Below, piece after piece: positions 4,021 to 52,106 of a stretch of 64,000 nucleotides of DNA. The DNA comes from an uncultured Spirochaetota bacterium. Its GTDB lineage: Bacteria > Spirochaetota > Brevinematia > Brevinematales > JAOACQ01. The translations under genes and the position numbers were made by a program. Numbering within the stretch: the stretch's first letter is position 1; every line of letters starts with the position of its first letter. Below the pieces are notes generated by a model that worked only from the letters and a program-made list of their open reading frames with translations, ran no database searches and was not told where the DNA came from. Location: positions 160,001 through 224,000 of the forward strand of contig CAWAOD010000011.1 in assembly GCA_963783575.1 (NCBI GenBank). Direction: 5' to 3'.

Positions 4021-5881
4021 GTGCCTGAACGGAAACTCCAATTTTAAAAAATTTCTAAATCAAAAGCTCAGTTATGCTATTTTCCTGATTACAAAAATTT
4101 TTCCTGAAACAAAACTTATTAAATACTTTGCACCGTATCTAAGAATTAATACAAAAAAAACCAAAATATAACATTTTAAAAGCTTATGGGCAGACTATAC
4201 CCTTAGATATCAAATTAGCCGGAAAATCTATGCTGCCTTCATAATTTTCTTTTTTCCCGGGAGGCGTGCCTCTCTTTCCTGCCTCTTTATCTCTTTCTGC
4301 ACAAGGATATGTCCCATAATCTGAATGTTCCTGGCGACAAAAGACAAACTGACATACCTCTTAAACCCAACTATTCCATGGTCAAGGCATCTGTCCAAAC
4401 CATGATTTTCCATGGCGCTGATCCCTGACTCCACAGCTCTATGTGCCCGTTTTGCCACCCGGTACTCCTCTGTTTTTTCCCGCTCCTTTTCATCAATCGT
4501 TAGCTTGCCTTTCCTTGTCATAATCAGTTTATCCACCATTTTTCCCAGTTTGCTCTTGTTTTCAGGACTGTAAAATCCTTTATCATAGCTCACCTGTCTG
4601 ATGTTATTAAATACAGAAATAGTTTCTTCCATAATACTAACTGCCACCGCTTCGTCAGTCTTCTTTTCCATAACCATGTGATTAAGCATAAAACCAAACT
4701 GATCCTGCACCACACAAACCCGGACTCCAAGTTCCTGTGGTACTCCGGCTTTTCCTTTACTGATCCACTCTGTATGAGGCTCGAAAATCGAAAATATTTT
4801 CTCTTCGTGATGGATAACCTCACCTTTCAGTACCCGTCTGTTGACTTGATCCATCAGCTTTAGAGCCAGCCTAATATAATGTTCTAATGTCATTTCCAAT
4901 GGTATATTTGTAACCATCTTTAGAGAATCTGTTACTTTCAAGAGAATATTTTCGATATCCTTGAGATAATTCCTGTATTCCTTTTTTATCCGTTTGTCAC
5001 TTTTACCTATCTTTACTTGATCTTTTGAAGTCGATCGTTTCAGCCTTTGTATGCTCATAACTTTTTTTTAAGCTTCCCGATAGTATGTTTCCCCTGGCGA
5101 AAACCTGTTAGACCTGCATTTTTAAAGAATCCGACTATACCTGTAATTACCTTTCTCATGGCATCAAACAGAAGACTGATATCTGTCGGGAAATGAACGT
5201 CTGTTTCAACAACAAAGGAATCAACCTTCACTTTTAAACCTTTTTTTGCTTTTTCCCCAATAAGATCGTGGCCGGCTTTAACAACCACTTCATTAATCTT
5301 TGATAGTATTTCAGGAGTGAATAGAGAAATGTTCTCCCTGAGTGTCTGCAAAGCATATCTATCGACAGTAAACTCAGTTTTGCCAAGCATCTGCCTTATA
5401 GCTTTGTGATTATTCGCCTGATCCTGGAGTTTGTCATAGTCCCAGTTGCAATTCAATCGCAGCATTCCCATCACAAAGATTTCCCATATACTCATCCCCT
5501 TTCTTCCGATTCTTTTCTTTTTTATCTGGTATCATTTCCTCAAATATCTTGAATATTTTGTCCTTGATTTCAGGATTGCAATATATATATTTCAGGCCCA
5601 TAAGCAGCTTTGGAACCTCGTCACGGCAAGTTAAATCAATCACTATTTCACTGATATCAACTTCACCGATCTTTTTCTGTACTTCTTCGTTTTGTCTCAT
5701 AAATTTTTCCTCGAAGATTTAAAAAATTATATTTTTGTCGGGTTGATGCATGTCCATATCTGATAATATATTATAGCATTTTTATTCGGTTTTGTATTGC
5801 TTTTTTATTCAAATCTTCAATTTTATTTTATGCCATAATTCCCTTGCTAGTACTGCATTATCTGTATTTCCGTTCAGACAC
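4021..5881 (-). mobile_element. IS element, ISNCY (ISDol1-like) group, 1861 bp
   Basis: Terminal inverted repeats GTGCCTGAACGGAAA (4021-4035) and TTTCCGTTCAGACAC (5867-5881); 6-bp direct repeat TATTTA at 4015-4020 and 5882-5887. Confidence 0.85.
4228..5700 (-). CDS. ISNCY-family DDE transposase, in three frames (frameshifts at ~5520 and ~5065)
   Basis: RDEVPKLL, NWDYDKL, DSFVVETDVHFPTD, EKIFSIFEPHTEWISKGKAG, SYDKGF and VESGI motifs; both breaks lie in A-runs. Confidence 0.82.
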
Positions 5882-5901
5882 TATTTAATCATTTGCTATG
5901 A

Positions 5902-7609
5902 CCTAAACTGAGCGATTCTTAACTATCCATAAAAATAGAACCATGCTAAAATAAAATGGGGTAAGGAAATGGTTACAGCCATCCTTACCCCGGAATAACA
6001 CCCATTGGGTGCAAAAGCAGGTAAATTATGACTGAAAAAAATAAAAATCGCAAAATTCAGGGAAATGAGATTCAAAAAATCGGCATAACGAAAGATTGTC
6101 TTACCAGCCGCGGCGGGCTTACGTTTGTCCTGAGATATCTCAAGAATATTAAAGTTATTCCCCTGATCAGCGAAGTATTTCAGGGAATTCGCAAGAGCCG
6201 CAAAGGTAAAGATATAGAAAAAATTATTTCTCAATTGATGCTGTTTTTCATAGATGGAAGCAAATTTACCATGACCCGGTTTGATGAATTGGCAAATGAT
6301 ATCGGGCACAGAAAGGCCATTGAATGCAGCAAAGACAATATGTGCTCATCCCATGTGATAAAGAGATTTTTTCAGTGGTAAAAAAGACAATGTTTAAAGA
6401 GCTTCAAAAGATTCTAATTAAGCTTTTTGTCTGGCGTCTCAAGATAAAGAACCCGAAAGTTATTATTCTCGGACTTGATACGATGGTACTGAATAATGAT
6501 GACGCTAAAAAGCGAAACGGCGTGACTTATACCTACAAAAAGGTTAACGGGTATCATCCGCTGCATATGTATTGGAATGGTTTTATCGTGAACCTGGCGT
6601 TCCACGAAGGAAGCGAATCCCCGAATCACGGTGACGATCTGTTTACAATGCTGGAAGAAACAGTGAAGGAAATCCGGAAATGCTATGACAAAGAGGTGCC
6701 GATTATCGTTGTGTCTGATAGCGGGTTTTTTGACCAAAAGTATTTTAAGAAGCTGGAAGACCTGAAACTGTTCTTTATATGCGGCGGGAGAATACTGGAT
6801 TCAATCAAACTCGATTTGATGAAGCGATTGCCGGAAGAATGGAGAAGGTTTGAGAAAAAAGGAGATGTAATTGAATACCTGGACTTTCGGGACAGACGGG
6901 ATAGCTGGGAAAAGGGATACCGTGCCATTTATACCAAATATGAATGTGAAGACGGGGTTTTCAGATTAGCGTTCGACAGGCCTGAAAATATTATTTATAC
7001 AAATCTTGAAGAAGCGGAAGTATTGAAAGAAAAGGGGCTTGTGAAATATATGACGGCAGAGGAAATAGTGAGGCTCTATCATCTGAGGGCAAAAGATGAA
7101 CTGGTGAACCGTGGAATAAAAGAATTCGTGGATGAAACACTGCCGTTTAAGAGTTTTGTATCAAACGGTGTATATTATTTTTTATCGATAATAGCGTATA
7201 ATCTGCTGTCGGCTTATCAGGCGGATATGGATATACCGGAAATACCAGTGGAAAGTTATCCGGATACGGTCAGGCGAATATTTATTGATATTGCGGGAAA
7301 GATTGTTAAAACAGGCGGGCGGGCTATTTTAAAATTCAGGGAAGAAGTAGTTGACAGGTTTAAATTGTTAGATTTGTGGGAGAAATGCGGAACGGTTACC
7401 CCGATTTAAAGATGCGCTCTGTTTTCATGGATTAATAAGGGGGTATTGCGCCAAAAATTGAAAATATCTCAGAGATTGATGATTTTAGTGCTTTCAAACG
7501 CATAAATTCGGCAAATTAACCGGTGACAAAAAAATATATCCAAATTTTTATAAATTTTGGCTTTTATAAACCTGTTTTTGGTATTTATTAAAAAATCGCT
7601 CAGTTTGGG
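5902..7609 (+). mobile_element. IS1380-family element, 1708 bp
   Basis: Inverted repeats CCTAAACTGAGCGATT (5902-5917) and AATCGCTCAGTTTGGG (7594-7609), CC-starting ends; 5-bp direct repeat TATGA at 5897-5901 and 7610-7614. Confidence 0.88.
6028..7409 (+). CDS. IS1380-family transposase (frameshift at ~6370)
   Basis: LTSRGGL, LGLDT, GYHPL, VVSDSGF, YHLRAKDE, IAGKIVKTGG motifs; one extra T in the gattttttc run joins the two ORFs. Confidence 0.85.
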
Positions 7610-7707: not shown

Positions 7708-8194
7708 ATGAAAATCGAATACGCATCAATTGACCTTTACAAATCATATTGTGAGGCTGTTAAATCAGTCTGCGAAGAAGAAAAATATTTAGCTAATACA
7801 ACCGGCTTTTCTGAAGAGCAGACAAAATCTTTTGTAGAAAAGATTATATCAAATAATTTTTCACAGTTTTATGCCATTGAAAACGGCCGTGTAATCGGAT
7901 GGTGCGATATTATTCCGAGAGAACAGGAAGCTCCATAGGCACATTGGTGTTCTGGGAATGGGTATAATTCCAGGATTCCGCGGTAGAGGAATCGGGACGG
8001 AACTGATCATCCGCACGATAAGCCATGCAAGGTCGCATGGGATTGAAAGAATCGAGCTGGAAGTGTGTGCGGATAATTCAATAGCACAAAAACTTTATGA
8101 AAAAACCGGTTTTCAAAAAGAGGGTGTTAAACGGAAAGGCAAAAAAATCAAAGGCCGGTATGAGGATGTAATAATAATGGGGTTAATTGGATAA
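7708..8194 (+). CDS. GNAT-family N-acetyltransferase (frameshift at ~7933)
   Basis: VIGWCDI...GVLGMGIIPGFRGRGIG (acetyl-CoA motif A), LEVCADN, LYEKTGF; removing one C in gctccat joins the ORFs. Confidence 0.82.
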
Positions 8195-8244
8195 TGTCGG
8201 ATATTTATATTAAAAACAATTTAGTGATTATGGAGGTAATAATT

Positions 8245-8811
8245 ATGGTAGGAATTAAAGGGTCGGTTATCAACGAAACTATTGAAGCCGTGAGGAAAAG
8301 AAGCGGAGACCAAATATTTAATGATATTATCGGCCATTTAGACAAACAATCAAAACATTTATTTGAGAATATGATATTAGCGGCGGAATGGTATCCGTTA
8401 GATTCCTTTATAAAATTTCTTGAATTTGATATAAAATTAACCACAAACGGTAATGAAAATGAATTAATTGATCGATCGGAAGATTTACTTGGAAAACAAT
8501 TAAAAGGCATTTTTAAGTCATTTGTGAAAGAAGGATCACCAGAATTTGTTCTCGATAATTGTGTTTCAATTATGCATAAAAGTTATTTCAATGGTGTTAC
8601 GATTGAAAAAAAAATGGAAGGGCCGGATAAAGTATTAATAAGATATATCGGTTTTGAAAAACAACACAAACTGATAGAATACAGTATTATCGGATTTTAC
8701 AAAAAAGCCCTGGAACTTTCGGGAGCGAAAAATGTTCAGGCTGAATATTTAACTTCAATTAAAGAAAATAAAGGCTATTGCGATCTTGAAATCTCATGGA
8801 AAAGGGAATGA
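8245..8811 (+). CDS. Hypothetical protein, DUF2378/H-NOX-V4R-like small ligand-binding fold
   Basis: GGAGG RBS before ATG 8245; IKG..., WYP and terminal EISW pattern resemble DUF2378-type proteins (recognised by eye). Confidence 0.45.
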   Translation: MVGIKGSVINETIEAVRKRSGDQIFNDIIGHLDKQSKHLFENMILAAEWYPLDSFIKFLEFDIKLTTNGNENELIDRSEDLLGKQLKGIFKSFVKEGSPEFVLDNCVSIMHKSYFNGVTIEKKMEGPDKVLIRYIGFEKQHKLIEYSIIGFYKKALELSGAKNVQAEYLTSIKENKGYCDLEISWKRE

Positions 8812-8948
8812 ATTATCTAATTTAATTCAAAATTTCCGGAGCAAAAAAAAAGAAAATCTTTATTTATATGTTGATTTACGTTTTTTTATTTCATATCCGG
8901 TTTAAATAAAGGGTATTAATGTCCATCTACCCAGGCCCCTTTGCTTCT

Positions 8949-9073
8949 CTTCGGCAACAGACTGTGTGAAAACTCGGCTTTTTGAAGCGTAATTCTATAT
9001 TTTCCGTTTTGTAACTTCTATAAATACATAATGAAAAATTGTTTTCACACAGCCTGCAAGCTCAGGGCAGGCT
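8949..9073 (+). repeat. REP-like repeat copy A, interrupted by a MITE
   Basis: Removing 8958-9056 and one CAA gives CTTCGGCAAGCTCAGGGCAGGCT, which matches the uninterrupted copy at 52069-52092. Confidence 0.75.
8958..9056. mobile_element. 99-bp non-autonomous MITE with IS1182-type ends
   Basis: CAGACTGTGTGAAAAC ... GTTTTCACACAGCCTG, 15-16 of 16 identical to the ends of the neighbouring IS1182; flanked by CAA direct repeat (8955-8957, 9057-9059); no ORF. Confidence 0.85.
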
Positions 9074-9158
9074 GCTTGACCCGGTTTAGATTTCTTACGC
9101 AACAAAGTTGCGTATAGCTTTGCGGAGTTTATTCCTAGCAAAGCCTGCCCTGAGATTA

Positions 9159-10849
9159 CAGACTGTGTGAAAACACAGTAAATATGCTATAATTATTAGA
9201 ACAAAAATAATCGGAGTAAAAGATGAAGCATATTGAGGGAGAATCAAGGGATCAGATAGTTCTGTTCAATGAAACACTGGAAGATCTGTTAGGAGAAGAA
9301 GATCCGGTAAGGTTTATAGATATTTTTGTTGATAAGCTAAATATGAAAGGAGTTGGTTTTAAAGTAAAAGAAGCATCAACCGGCAGAAGTTCATATAAAT
9401 CCGAAATACTTTTAAAAATCTATATTTACGGATATTTGAATAAAATCAGGACAAGCAGGAAATTAGAGAGAGAGTGCCGAAGAAACACAGAGTTGATGTG
9501 GCTGACTGGACGACTAGCGCCGGATTTCAAGACGATTGCCGACTTCAGGAAAGATAATAAGAAGGGAATACAGTCGATATTCAGAGAATTTTTGAAGATA
9601 TGTCATAAAGCCGGGCTTTTATCATTTGACGTTGTTGGAATTGATGGAACCAAGATCAGTGCGCAAAACCACAATAACAATGTTTATCATAGGAAAAACA
9701 TAGAAGAAATCATACATAGAATAGATCAAAAGATCGAAGAATATTTGAATGAGATGGATAAGAACGATAAGGAAGAAAAGAATGAATTTGAATTTCTTTC
9801 CGGAAAGATAGCGGAACGTTTAAAGAAAATGAAAACAAAAAAGGATAAAGTTGAGGCTATTAAAAAGATTTTTGAGGGAAATCCTGAAATGGAGAAATAT
9901 TATTCAAATGACCCGGAAAGCCGGTTTATGAATGATAAAGGGAAATCCGACATTGCATATAATCTGCAGATGGCAGTAGATGATGCGAATAAACTGATTG
10001 TGGTGATTGATGTGACGAATGAAAACAATGATATCAAACAGATGGCAGGAATGTGTGACCGAGTAGAAGAAATAAAGGACGAGCTTAAGGTAGAGACTGA
10101 AACGGTCAAAGTATCGGATGCCGGTTATTACAGCGAACCGCAGATACTGGAATGTATAGATAAGGGACATAACGTATATATGCCGAATCCGGATGACGGA
10201 CATAAGGCAAGGATTCGAGGCAAAGAAGATAATAAAGGAGTACCTGCTGAAGAATACCAGGTTGATAAATTCAAATATGATCCGGGACAAAATGTTTATT
10301 ATTGTCCGGAGGGAAACCCATTAGTGAGAAATGGGAAAAAAGTAGAGAAGGTCAATGGAGGAAAAGAGATAGTCAGGTACAAGTGCGGCTTATGCAGCCA
10401 ATGTGAAGTAAGAAATAAGTGTACTGAAAGCGTGGAAGGACGAAGTATCAAAGTACCAGTTAGAAAAGAAGAAATTGAGAACTTCAAGAGGAAAATTCGT
10501 TCTGAAGCCGGGAAAAAGATCATAGAGAAAAGGAAAGAGATATGTGAACATCCATTTGGATCGATAAAAAGGAATATGGGTTACAGTTATTTTTTAATGA
10601 AGGGAAAGGATGGCGTTCTGACGGAATCCAGTTTGGCAGGATTCATTCATAATTTAATAAAAGTATTGAATATATTGGGAATAAAGAGACTTATGACTCT
10701 GGTTTGATGCTAATAAACCATCGTTTATCGTATTCGGATAGATTTTTTAAACTAAGATTTTTTTAGCTTGAAAAATATATCAAAAAATGGAGTCTTTGTA
10801 TAATTAATCGATTTTACTATAAAATTTTACTGAGTTTTCACACAGTCTG
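9159..10849 (+). mobile_element. IS1182-family element, 1691 bp
   Basis: Inverted repeats CAGACTGTGTGAAAACACAGTAAA and TTTACTGAGTTTTCACACAGTCTG; 3-bp direct repeat TTA (9156-9158, 10850-10852). Confidence 0.9.
9223..10707 (+). CDS. IS1182-family transposase (intact)
   Basis: IYIYGYLN...SRKLERE, PDFKTIADFR, IDGTKI, DAGY, YYCPEG, EHPFGSIK motifs. Confidence 0.92.
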   Translation: MKHIEGESRDQIVLFNETLEDLLGEEDPVRFIDIFVDKLNMKGVGFKVKEASTGRSSYKSEILLKIYIYGYLNKIRTSRKLERECRRNTELMWLTGRLAPDFKTIADFRKDNKKGIQSIFREFLKICHKAGLLSFDVVGIDGTKISAQNHNNNVYHRKNIEEIIHRIDQKIEEYLNEMDKNDKEEKNEFEFLSGKIAERLKKMKTKKDKVEAIKKIFEGNPEMEKYYSNDPESRFMNDKGKSDIAYNLQMAVDDANKLIVVIDVTNENNDIKQMAGMCDRVEEIKDELKVETETVKVSDAGYYSEPQILECIDKGHNVYMPNPDDGHKARIRGKEDNKGVPAEEYQVDKFKYDPGQNVYYCPEGNPLVRNGKKVEKVNGGKEIVRYKCGLCSQCEVRNKCTESVEGRSIKVPVRKEEIENFKRKIRSEAGKKIIEKRKEICEHPFGSIKRNMGYSYFLMKGKDGVLTESSLAGFIHNLIKVLNILGIKRLMTLV

Positions 10850-10956
10850 TTATCGAAGGGTCGAGGGGATTCCTTTAGAGTTCTTACATAATACCTCACA
10901 GCTTTCTGCAATGTTTATTACCTAGAAGCTCTGCCTCGAGGATCTTTATTACCAAT

Positions 10957-13350
10957 TTATTCTGATATAATAATGTTGGAGTAAGAAGACCACCCAGCAG
11001 TATTTGCATAAACACTTACATATATGTTCGAAACTCTGATGGCTTTCAAATTACCGCAGCTCTGGAATTGCGACCCATCGGCTACAGGCGGTGCAATGGG
11101 ATTTAGTATTACATTCGTCAGGTTGCCGCAGAAGCCAAAAGCGTCAATCCCGATATTCGTGACGCCGGCAGGTATTGCCACATTTGTTACACTGCAGTAT
11201 TCAAAAGCTTCGTCACCGATAGATGTGACGCTGTTTGGAATTATAACGATTGCCAGATTATTGCAGTTCTGGAACATACCGTATTGTATGACTGTAATAT
11301 TGTTAGGGATAGTCACGCTCTTCAGGTTTACACAGCTCTGGAATGCATCGTATCCAATAGACGTAACGCTGTCGGCTATTGTCACATATACCAGGCTTCC
11401 GCAATTCTGGAAAGCAGAATACTCAATCGTTGTGACGCCGCTTTGAATCGTCACATTAGCCAGGCTGCCGCAGTATTGGAATGCTGAATATCCAACAGTT
11501 ATGACACTGCCAGGGATCGTAACACTTGCAAGGCCACTACAGCCCTGGAATGCATTATTCCCTACATTCGTGACACTGGTAGGGATTGTCAAACTTATAA
11601 GACTGCCGCATCCATTGAATGCACTATTCCCGATAGATGTAACACTGCCGGGAATATTGATATTTGTTAGGCTGGAGCAGCCCGAAAACACTTCATTTCC
11701 AATAGATGTTATACTGCCAAGATTTGTTACAATTAAAAGGCTGACACATCCATTGAATGCACCGTTTCCGATAGATATAACACTTGTAGGGATTGTTACG
11801 CTCTGCAAACCTACACAATTTGCGAATGCATTATTTCCAATTGTAGTGACATTGCCAGGGATTGTTATATTTGTGAGGCTTCCGCAGTTCTGGAAAGCCT
11901 GGTCACCGATGGAAGTAACACTGTTCGGGATAGTCACGCTCTTCAGGCTTCCGCAATTCTGGAAGTCCCAACCTCCTATTGTTGTGATGCAATTTGGAAG
12001 TGTTACATTTGTAAGTCCGTTGCAGCCCTGGAATGAAAATGTTCCCATAGAAGTAACGCTGTTTGGAATTGCTATGCTTACCAGGCTGCCACATTGCGAG
12101 AAAACATCATTTCCGATAGATGTAACGCTGTTTGGGATAGTCACGCTCTTCAGGCTTCCGCAGTTCTGGAAGGCCTGATCACCGATGGAAGTGACACTGT
12201 TAGGGATTGTTACATTTGTCAGCCCACTGCAGCTCTGGAATGTATTATTATAGATTGTCGAAACGCCGTTGGGAATTGTAATGCTCGTCAGGCCGCTGTT
12301 TTGGAACGCAGAATATCCTATCGTTGTAACGTTGTTCGGGATACTCAGGCTCCTCAGACTGCTGCAATTTTGAAAAGCGGAATATCCTATCGCTGTGACG
12401 CTATTAGGAATCGTTACGCTTACCAGTCCTGTGCAGCCTTGAAACAAATTATTCCCGATATACGCAGTACCGCTGACGATTGTTGCGTTTGTTAGTCCGG
12501 TACAGTTTTGAAACGTTCCATTCCCGATGGATGCAATATTGGTTGAGATCGTCAAATTCACCAGACCCGAATTCTGGAACGCATTATCCTGAATGGCAGT
12601 GACACTGCCCGGAAAAGTAATATTCTTCAGCCCCGTGCAGTTTTGAAATGCGCTGTTTCCGATATAACTAACGGTGTTCGGGATTGTTATATTTGTTAGA
12701 CTTGTACAGTTTTGGAACCAGTTATTCCCTATGAAAGTAAAATTGTTTGGGAGAGTTATACTTGCCAGGCTGGAACAGTAGGCAAACAAATTATTTTCCC
12801 AGTTCTGAACCATAATGCTGTTAGGGATTGACACGCTTATTAAGCTAGTGCAATATAAAAACACTTCATTTCCGATGGATATAACACTGTTAGGAATTAT
12901 AATGTCTGTAAGGCTGGAACAGTACGCAAACGTATCATTCCCAATGGATGTGACGCTGTTGGGGATAGTAATGTTTGTCAGGCCTGTACAGCCCTGGAAT
13001 GCGCTATCCTCAAGGGAAGTTACACTTGTCGATATTGTTATATCCCTCAAAATAGAACAATTCTTGAATGCGCCATTCCCGATTGACGTAACGATATTAC
13101 TGTTTATTGAGCCGGGTATTACAATAGAGGCTTTTTGTGAATCATTCTGGTTGGACCATAAACTGGAAAGCCCTGTAATTGTACATGTATTGCCGGAAAT
13201 GGTATATGTAAAAATGGAGGTGGCCGGAGTCGAACTTGTTGGATTGCTGGAATTGCCTCCACTGCCGCTGCTTCCCGGGTTAGTACTGCAGCTTGCTGTG
13301 AAGAAAAAGATAACCATAAAGAAAATTGGAACAAAAAGTTTCCTGATCAT
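10957..13350 (-). CDS. BspA/TpLRR leucine-rich-repeat surface lipoprotein
   Basis: RBS GGGGAGGA before ATG 13350; lipobox TASC; Ser/Gly linker; long run of 22-23 aa repeats LxxVTIPNSVTSIGxxAFxxC. Confidence 0.92.
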   Translation of the reverse strand: MIRKLFVPIFFMVIFFFTASCSTNPGSSGSGGNSSNPTSSTPATSIFTYTISGNTCTITGLSSLWSNQNDSQKASIVIPGSINSNIVTSIGNGAFKNCSILRDITISTSVTSLEDSAFQGCTGLTNITIPNSVTSIGNDTFAYCSSLTDIIIPNSVISIGNEVFLYCTSLISVSIPNSIMVQNWENNLFAYCSSLASITLPNNFTFIGNNWFQNCTSLTNITIPNTVSYIGNSAFQNCTGLKNITFPGSVTAIQDNAFQNSGLVNLTISTNIASIGNGTFQNCTGLTNATIVSGTAYIGNNLFQGCTGLVSVTIPNSVTAIGYSAFQNCSSLRSLSIPNNVTTIGYSAFQNSGLTSITIPNGVSTIYNNTFQSCSGLTNVTIPNSVTSIGDQAFQNCGSLKSVTIPNSVTSIGNDVFSQCGSLVSIAIPNSVTSMGTFSFQGCNGLTNVTLPNCITTIGGWDFQNCGSLKSVTIPNSVTSIGDQAFQNCGSLTNITIPGNVTTIGNNAFANCVGLQSVTIPTSVISIGNGAFNGCVSLLIVTNLGSITSIGNEVFSGCSSLTNINIPGSVTSIGNSAFNGCGSLISLTIPTSVTNVGNNAFQGCSGLASVTIPGSVITVGYSAFQYCGSLANVTIQSGVTTIEYSAFQNCGSLVYVTIADSVTSIGYDAFQSCVNLKSVTIPNNITVIQYGMFQNCNNLAIVIIPNSVTSIGDEAFEYCSVTNVAIPAGVTNIGIDAFGFCGNLTNVILNPIAPPVADGSQFQSCGNLKAIRVSNIYVSVYANTAGWSSYSNIIISE

Positions 13351-13590
13351 AAAATTTGTCCTCCCCAAAAAAAATCGTATCGAATGCATTTATTTTATCG
13401 AAAATCAGTTAAATTGTCAAGACCACAGACGGGAGGGAAATTTTAACTTTCTATACATAATAATCCTTCATTTGATTCAAGTTATCTGCGCCGGTTCATT
13501 ATTCCACCATTTATACCCTGTTTTCTTTGCTGTTTTTGATTCTATATATTACAATTTTCCTCAATAAAGTATATTTTGAAGGAGTCATCA

Positions 13591-52058: not shown

Positions 52059-52106
52059 CCTTTGGTTTCTTTCGACAAGCTCAGGACAGGCTTCTTGACC
52101 AGGTTT
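52059..52106 (+). repeat. REP-like repeat copy C (uninterrupted)
   Basis: CCTTTGGTTTCTTTCGACAAGCTCAGGACAGGCTTCTTGACCAGGTTT aligns with reconstructed copy A, CCTTTGCTTCTCTTCGGCAAGCTCAGGGCAGGCTGCTTGACCCGGTTT. Confidence 0.8.

Follow-up and report, generated by a model that had tools for sequence, protein, structure and literature searches.

Insertion of an IS1182-family element and a MITE at one register of a REP-like repeat: likely recognition of sequence and not merely of a hairpin

Most DDE transposases have short, loose targets. REP-targeting ISs are known from several families. In the available text of Tobes and Pareja (2006, PMC1525189), IS1397 and ISKpn1 (both IS3) recognise two distinct types of palindromic unit, a difference for which the transposase is held responsible. 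The same text places all copies of ISPsy8 (IS3) and ISRm22 (IS4) at one REP position on the symmetry axis, with a 3-bp duplication for ISPsy8 and imperfect duplications in some copies of ISRm22 (PMC1525189). An IS481 case at a REP also appears in the accessible part of bioRxiv 10.1101/2024.06.02.596822. Within the IS1182 family, IS1272 and TnSha1 are described, in the passages of PMC5678879 and PMC4923244 consulted, as inserting in either direction at inverted repeats; with IS1272 the hairpin is lost, the target is not duplicated and there is no specificity for primary sequence. In those passages, both papers cite Siguier et al. 2015 for some IS1182 members targeting palindromes, without detailed data.

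REP-targeting ISs with a fixed insertion point and palindrome-seeking IS1182 members are already known; what is added here is a test of sequence against structure and a specificity switch. In the literature searched we found nothing on the present target or on sequence-specific REP choice by an IS1182 member; ISfinder, TnCentral and the Siguier reviews lay outside that search, and an entry may exist.

The window locus and insertions across the genome

The window is the whole 64,000-nucleotide stretch of DNA analysed here; its genome is referred to as G000, and G001, G011 and similar labels denote relatives' genomes. It holds two inverted copies of a REP-like hairpin repeat, one split by a 99-bp MITE and the other by an IS1182-family element (Table 1), and both duplicated triplets form the centre of the 5-nt loop of CxCTTCG-N5-CTCAGGG. 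A preliminary description had placed the MITE with CAA, the IS with TTA/TAA and an empty copy at 52070-52092, and these coordinates proved exact. Mosaics related to the spacer between the two copies are found again in the genome, and the TATAAT of the -10-like motif is also present in relatives of the IS.

Table 1. Features of the window locus
Feature	Position	Strand	Details
Target repeat copy 1, split by the MITE	8947..9073	+	CTCTTCGG[CAA]GCTCAGGG plus CAGGCT tail; from sequence
Parts of copy 1	left arm 8947-8954; right arm 9060-9067; tail 9068-9073	+	from sequence
CAA 3-bp target duplication flanking the MITE	left 8955..8957; right 9057-9059	+	
99-bp MITE	8958..9056	none	TIRs 8958-8973 and 9041-9056, 15/16 complementary
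Mosaic-repeat spacer between the two inverted target copies	9074..9141	none	
Target repeat copy 2, split by the IS	9142..10860	-	minus-strand CCCTTCGA[TAA]TCTCAGGG plus CAGGCT
Parts of copy 2	9142-9155; 10853-10860	-	from sequence
TTA (TAA on the minus strand) 3-bp target duplication flanking the IS	left 9156..9158; right 10850-10852	+	
IS1182-family insertion sequence	9159..10849	+	1,691 bp
IS inverted repeats	9159-9182; 10826-10849		24 bp, 23/24 match
TG-C-TATAAT, putative extended -10-like motif	9185..9193	+	upstream of the transposase gene
Transposase gene	9223..10707	+	494 aa; DUF772 N-terminus, Tn5-like fold
Candidate target-reading module	10171..10464	+	Cys-rich beta-stranded insertion domain, residues 317-414
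Weaker, empty target repeat copy	52067..52092	+	

On either side of the locus are convergent genes. One (8194-8811) is a 205-aa ORF without matches in Pfam or NCBIfam; the other (10957-13389) encodes a BspA-type leucine-rich-repeat protein of 810 aa whose start is lipoprotein-like. The neighbouring interval 4228-7409 is also IS-rich, with a split ISNCY-like transposase (4228-5700, minus strand) and an IS1380-like one (6028-7409), both of which fall under their own model cut-offs.

In the window's genome the terminal repeat was matched 88 times when up to two mismatches were allowed; a stricter pattern removed five two-mismatch hits. The resulting 83 ends comprise 40 paired elements (33 IS-sized and 7 MITEs) and 3 unpaired ends, namely two ISs truncated at contig ends and one lone end, all with target-like flanks on the surviving side. 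At the lone end (C16:129111), a REP-like start follows. The IS-sized elements measure 1,691 bp (27 copies), 1,690 bp (2), 1,619 bp (3) and 977 bp (1), and the MITEs 99 bp (6) and 58 bp (1). In the 27 copies of 1,691 bp the ORF is intact with 0-12 differences, which indicate recent spread only. Three IS copies (C5:218207, C9:587581 and C14:477676) share an identical in-frame internal deletion of 72 bp, near IS position 819-880, and two of these have no matching duplication. Sixteen weaker tblastn loci in the genome belong to several distant DDE transposase families (23-33% identity).

When the flanks were tabulated genome-wide, all 40 paired elements were found in a single register of CCCTTCG-N[NNN]N-CTCAGGG or a worn version of it, as had been proposed from the two elements of the window; this is the association classed as type 1 REP targeting in the available text of Tobes and Pareja (PMC1525189). 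Beyond the repeat, the flanks are unrelated (40 clusters, or 39 if one common flank is enough), so the 40 insertions are independent events, as suggested earlier for the window's two. A perfect 3-bp duplication is present in 29 of the 40 elements, including 6 of the 7 MITEs. Of the earlier statement that both elements make the same duplication, the length holds but the sequence does not, since nine triplets occur among the 29 (CAA 11, CAG 5, TAT 3, TAA 3, CAT 2, TCA 2 and three others). The suggestion of oriented insertion must be dropped: relative to the asymmetric repeat, orientation is random for the IS (18:15, binomial p 0.73) and the MITE (4:3), and the equal orientation of the window's two elements is a coincidence. 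Only 3 of 40 sites lie within an ORF of at least 100 aa, against 87% coverage by such ORFs.

The reading that we favour, and hold to be probable, is insertion in either orientation at a fixed register of the CCCT-stem REP, likely by a two-fold symmetric transposase complex that reads the duplex directly, probably via a Cys-rich domain.

Sequence and structure of the target

With the 80 half-sites read towards the element, positions -9, -8 and -7 hold C (in 77, 78 and 68 half-sites), position -6 holds T (76) and position -3 holds G (75); positions -5 and -4 divide between the two arms. Such a symmetric half-site consensus, together with random orientation, is as expected from a symmetric transposase complex. 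After removal of the elements, the perfect 19-bp core occurs 29 times, against 0 expected in an order-4 Markov simulation (2 Mb). About 10 of the 40 sites are degenerate; on a matrix trained on these sites themselves, nine sites score 12.6-19 bits and one below 8. The symmetric motif matches 31 sites, 22 of them filled. The minimal motif CC-N-T-N11-A-N-GG was discarded as a sufficient target, with 32 filled among 864 sites. The window's empty copy is a worse target, with T at -9, T at -7 and A at +9, and its emptiness fits this poorer match.

Sister copies of the same core, of CGTCATACTGAG type, occur in the genome with a CGTCA tag, an AT-starting 8-bp stem and a 5-nt loop, in keeping with the CGTC/TGTC tag, AT-starting stem of 8-9 bp and loop of 4-5 nt of CGTC-tagged REPs. 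Set beside the description of family CGTC-2 of the CGTC-tagged REPs (AT-starting stem, 5-nt loop; available text of Di Nocera et al. 2013, PMC3733652), as opposed to its consensus, the CGTCA-tagged copies resemble that family. Most filled sites, unlike the CGTC-tagged REPs of that text, carry GCCTG (28), and 4 carry GTCA. The four supplements of PMC3733652, as far as they were available, gave no sequence matches to the repeat. No RAYT or repeat-associated nuclease gene flanked by the target repeat was found among the genes inspected (3 of 5 small GIY-YIG genes and both Y1 genes). Two small GIY-YIG genes (C11:87583 and C3:144592) lie between hairpin repeats of a related but different type in an Ssn-like layout, the latter apparently, as judged by eye, among cas4/cas1-like reading frames.

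The sites with a perfect CCCT/AGGG stem are filled in 21 of 29 cases (72%), compared to 0 of 36 sites with the same core and another complementary 4-bp stem (Fisher 7e-11). The empty variants include TGGT (0/8), CACT (0/8), TACT (0/8) and TCCT (0/3); about five of the 36 are probably chance matches, and a looser core gives 0/39. These counts bear on a structure-first account modelled on IS1272, in which an extruded hairpin or cruciform offers its loop to attack by the transposase, the loop centre is duplicated and stem strength matters over sequence. We consider this account rather unlikely: besides the 36 empty same-core hairpins, none of 329 perfect stems of at least 8 bp around a 5-nt loop is filled, and the outer stem is broken in 12 of the 29 duplicated sites, which were hit regardless. 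The duplicated triplet is indeed the centre of the hairpin loop, and loop duplication is one pathway of the model as given in the accessible part of PMC5678879. Filled sites also fold slightly better than the empty variants (19-mers, -0.83 vs -0.55 kcal/mol, p 0.044; 31-mers, -3.53 vs -2.51 kcal/mol, p 0.029), so that stem strength is partly confounded in the window's genome. The predicted folding of the 19-mer, however, amounts to about -1 kcal/mol, and a sister IS favours the weaker TGGT stem (see below). From these genomic counts, the target is likely read as sequence, over about 10 bases within 19, and not merely as a hairpin. In a mixed form the sequence may be read within the folded stem; duplex and folded-stem reading are not fully separable because nearly all matches to the symmetric motif are REP copies.

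The transposase, its relatives and their targets

The transposase is a single ORF that matches NCBIfam NF033551 (IS1182) at 347.1 bits (cut-off 270) as well as PF05598, PF01609 and PF13751 of Pfam. The earlier proposal of a sequence-specific IS1182 DDE transposase aimed at a genomic repeat is supported. Its predicted structure (pLDDT 88.7) aligns with Tn5 transposase 1mm8_A (Z 15.7, rmsd 4.3, 263 aligned), and D141, D299 and E442, invariant in 120 homologues, are likely the DDE catalytic triad. The family model, the DDE residues in an RNase H/Tn5-like fold, the TIRs and the target duplication establish the element as a member of IS1182. Searches gave no sequence relative in the PDB and no solved structure for the IS1182 family, and a search of the ESM Atlas gave PF13751 clusters only.

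Between D299 and E442 lies a beta-rich insertion, whose borders were set after viewing a dip in a sliding window. Five of its cysteines (C361, C388, C391, C394 and C400) are conserved in at least 90% of 120 homologues and presumably bind zinc; folded alone from a single sequence, the domain reaches pLDDT 50.4. Close relatives of the transposase were found in G001, G011 and G004 only, among 40 relatives at E 1e-40, and in G011 and G104 only, among 400 genomes of the phylum (E 1e-100; in each genome 3 candidates were scored). Between G000 and G001, 48 of 98 insertion-domain residues differ (49%), compared to 70 of 396 elsewhere (18%). In 263 family pairs of similar distance the mean identity in this domain is 75% (SD 6, minimum 52), which places the G000/G001 pair at the bottom of the range. 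The domain is a likely candidate for a specificity module, on the strength of one close pair and in what is the most variable region throughout the family. In a 32-protein tree the window protein joins P0002 and then G001 (96/92), and the users of CACAGAG (described below) fall on two separate branches; the points are too few to set the order of events. In the insertion domain P0002 shows 85% identity.

The sister IS of G001 (a 57% complete genome) encodes a transposase with 76% amino acid identity and has 16-bp ends identical to those of the window IS. Its target is the TGGT/ACCA stem variant in the same register: of 15 ends, 14 have T at -9, all 15 have G at -8, 11 have G at -7, 13 have T at -6 and 14 have G at -3. 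A duplication is present at 4 of 7 two-ended loci; the empty sites of that genome comprise five of GCTT type, one of CCCT and none of TGGT. In G011 the transposase is 54% identical, and the insertions fall in a CACAGAG-type repeat whose half-site is likewise symmetric but distinct (all 14 ends have G at -7 and C at -2; duplication in 5 of 7); 7 CCCT and 25 GSTT sites are empty there. A TCA register within the same REP core is used at L064 and L070 and in G077, where 9 of 9 ends fetched (of 16) end in TCA or TGA. CACAGAG/CGCAGAG repeats are found at the ends in L066, L067, L069, G005 and G063. In five genomes with the same ends the transposase is not assembled, so their targets are not assignable to a protein. 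A second, diverged IS of the clade occurs in record 8 of public run X1 (compared with window 10509-10830), the same run as the window IS.

The MITE is short and non-coding, occurs in 7 copies, and has 16-18 terminal bases and the duplication length in common with the IS. As the preliminary description held, it is a non-autonomous element with the ends of the autonomous IS. An origin by internal deletion of the resident IS was excluded, the interior being without similarity to it and having a homologue in another genus. That homologue, in G011, shares 83-84 of 99 bases (6 compared), and 13 of its 16 copies lie in TGGT-like sites (two with common flanks, which may be one event), 2 in sites like those of the resident IS and 1 in an unclear site. 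At L059 of G011, a CCCT site is occupied by an 86-bp MITE with the same ends; this MITE (L059:61-146) itself bears a CGTC-type REP hairpin. MITEs carrying REP hairpins could spread REP copies. In G071, MITEs with the same 15-bp ends (L082-L084, L087 and L088) have 4-bp duplications at GGTC[GATA]GACC-type palindromes and carry GTAG-like hairpins.

As the same MITE family is found at different targets depending on the genome, the target is not fixed by the DNA of the MITE itself. One host, G011, has elements with the same ends at three targets, most simply explained by a transposase that makes the choice in trans. Searches of G011 gave no TGGT-type transposase, and the mover of its TGGT-site MITEs is accordingly inferential. 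Placement by a host repeat-binding protein that is specific for the CCCT variant and recruits or positions the transposase sits poorly with these three target classes in one host, and we deem it very unlikely. REPs in other bacteria are bound by host proteins, and the two GIY-YIG genes between other hairpin repeats would be in keeping with such a partner. CGTC-type repeats with a dedicated nuclease family, Ssn, are described in the available part of PMC11893778; the SRM motif given there matches 0 of 40 filled sites at 0-1 mismatches and 4 of 40 at 2.

We therefore place target choice, by inference, in the transposase acting in trans. On our favoured reading of direct duplex recognition, the transposase would bind the 16-24-bp ends of the IS or of any MITE with those ends, and a two-fold symmetric complex would read duplex CCCT-NN-G-N[NNN]N-C-NN-AGGG through contacts at +/-3 and +/-6 to 9, probably with the Cys-rich insertion domain taking part in target reading. 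The element ends would be joined with a 3-base stagger at the site centre, and repair would then produce the 3-bp duplication. That a dimer reads the duplex is suggested by the Tn5-like fold and by what is generally known of DDE transpososomes; the targeting account as a whole rests on comparison of genomes. As safe places to land, intergenic repeats would likely allow the element a high copy number. More broadly, and at somewhat less than even confidence, the IS1182 clade with near-identical ends may constitute a panel of protein-only, sequence-specific integrases with symmetric sites of about 15-19 bp (CCCT-stem REP, TGGT-stem REP, the TCA register of that REP and CACAGAG repeats), retargeted through an exchangeable Cys-rich domain of about 100 residues, with the MITEs recording past transposases.

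Other accounts and comparison with known systems

It could also be argued that the repeat arms belong to the element, or that duplication, gene conversion or mis-assembly carried the flanks along with the copies, so that the common register would not reflect a choice of target. IS copies do share variants mosaically, and 11 of the 40 elements have no matching duplication, 10 of these with normal arm order. Recombination between randomly oriented copies should scramble about half, and so leaves this arm order unexplained. The 11 mismatched duplications would be compatible with gene conversion across the junctions or with consensus error and, together with the mosaic variants, suggest one or the other. 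As an explanation of the targeting, however, this account is highly improbable and is largely refuted by the random orientation of elements relative to an asymmetric repeat and by the variable matching triplets, nine of them at 29 distinct loci. Moreover, outer flanks are unrelated, empty copies exist, and two junctions, both already in the genome, were seen in contigs of public sequencing runs; the contigs and reads of these runs gave no new insertion sites. The chances of an IS-encoded guide RNA, as in the IS110 bridge recombinases, are negligible: long, changeable targets are typical of IS110 (PMC12288879, available text), but the protein belongs with the Tn5-like DDE transposases, symmetric recognition and the duplication of 3 bp are as expected from staggered strand transfer, and the non-coding ends (64 + 142 bases) contain no target half-site within one mismatch. 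An identity as an IS110 bridge-RNA recombinase was rejected on the IS1182 DDE protein, the lack of a target match in the ends and the lack of any Rfam match.

Within IS1182, the transposases of ISPa7, ISPa22 and ISPmo1 are 35-37% identical to that of the window IS, and their terminal repeats are similar (ISPa7 ends are present in L073). ISPa7 at L073 has GGCC on both flanks and differs from the window IS in branch and target. In a viral collection, IS1182 members were distant only and no CTCA-arm junction was found; paired ends there have a 4-bp duplication in 11 of 16 cases, mostly of GRCC/TGCC type.

Recognition by the best-described IS1182 member is taken to depend on hairpin shape and not on sequence; the control of same core and different stem in the window's genome points to sequence. 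The switched specificity of the sister, at 76% identity, points to one domain, and bears on the question of how a transposase made of a single protein recognises a long target and changes it. If the insertion domain is modular, it offers a lead for site-specific DNA insertion tools. The element also shows a route by which ISs reach high copy number without gene disruption.

IS1272, on the descriptions available to us, belongs to the same family and likewise inserts in both orientations at inverted repeats; the window IS differs in that 3 bp are duplicated, both arms are retained and sequence is discriminated. Transposition of the IS1272 type, with replacement of the stem-loop, was excluded on the retained arms, the 3-bp duplication and the contrast of 21/29 with 0/36 and 0/329. 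ISPsy8 and ISRm22 share the single REP position with the window IS, ISPsy8 also the 3-bp duplication and ISRm22 the occasional imperfect one, but they are of other families, and IS1182 is absent from the five families covered in the text of PMC1525189 available, where no comparison between stem variants is given either. The closest precedent there is IS1397/ISKpn1, with related ISs, different REP types and a choice set by the transposase (PMC1525189). Those are IS3 elements with a two-ORF transposase, whereas here a single-ORF, Tn5-like IS1182 protein acts at a repeat that resembles the CGTC type and, unlike in that pair as described, at least four targets occur in one clade with the same ends and a different candidate specificity domain. 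The window IS works like IS1397 and ISKpn1, and unlike IS1272.
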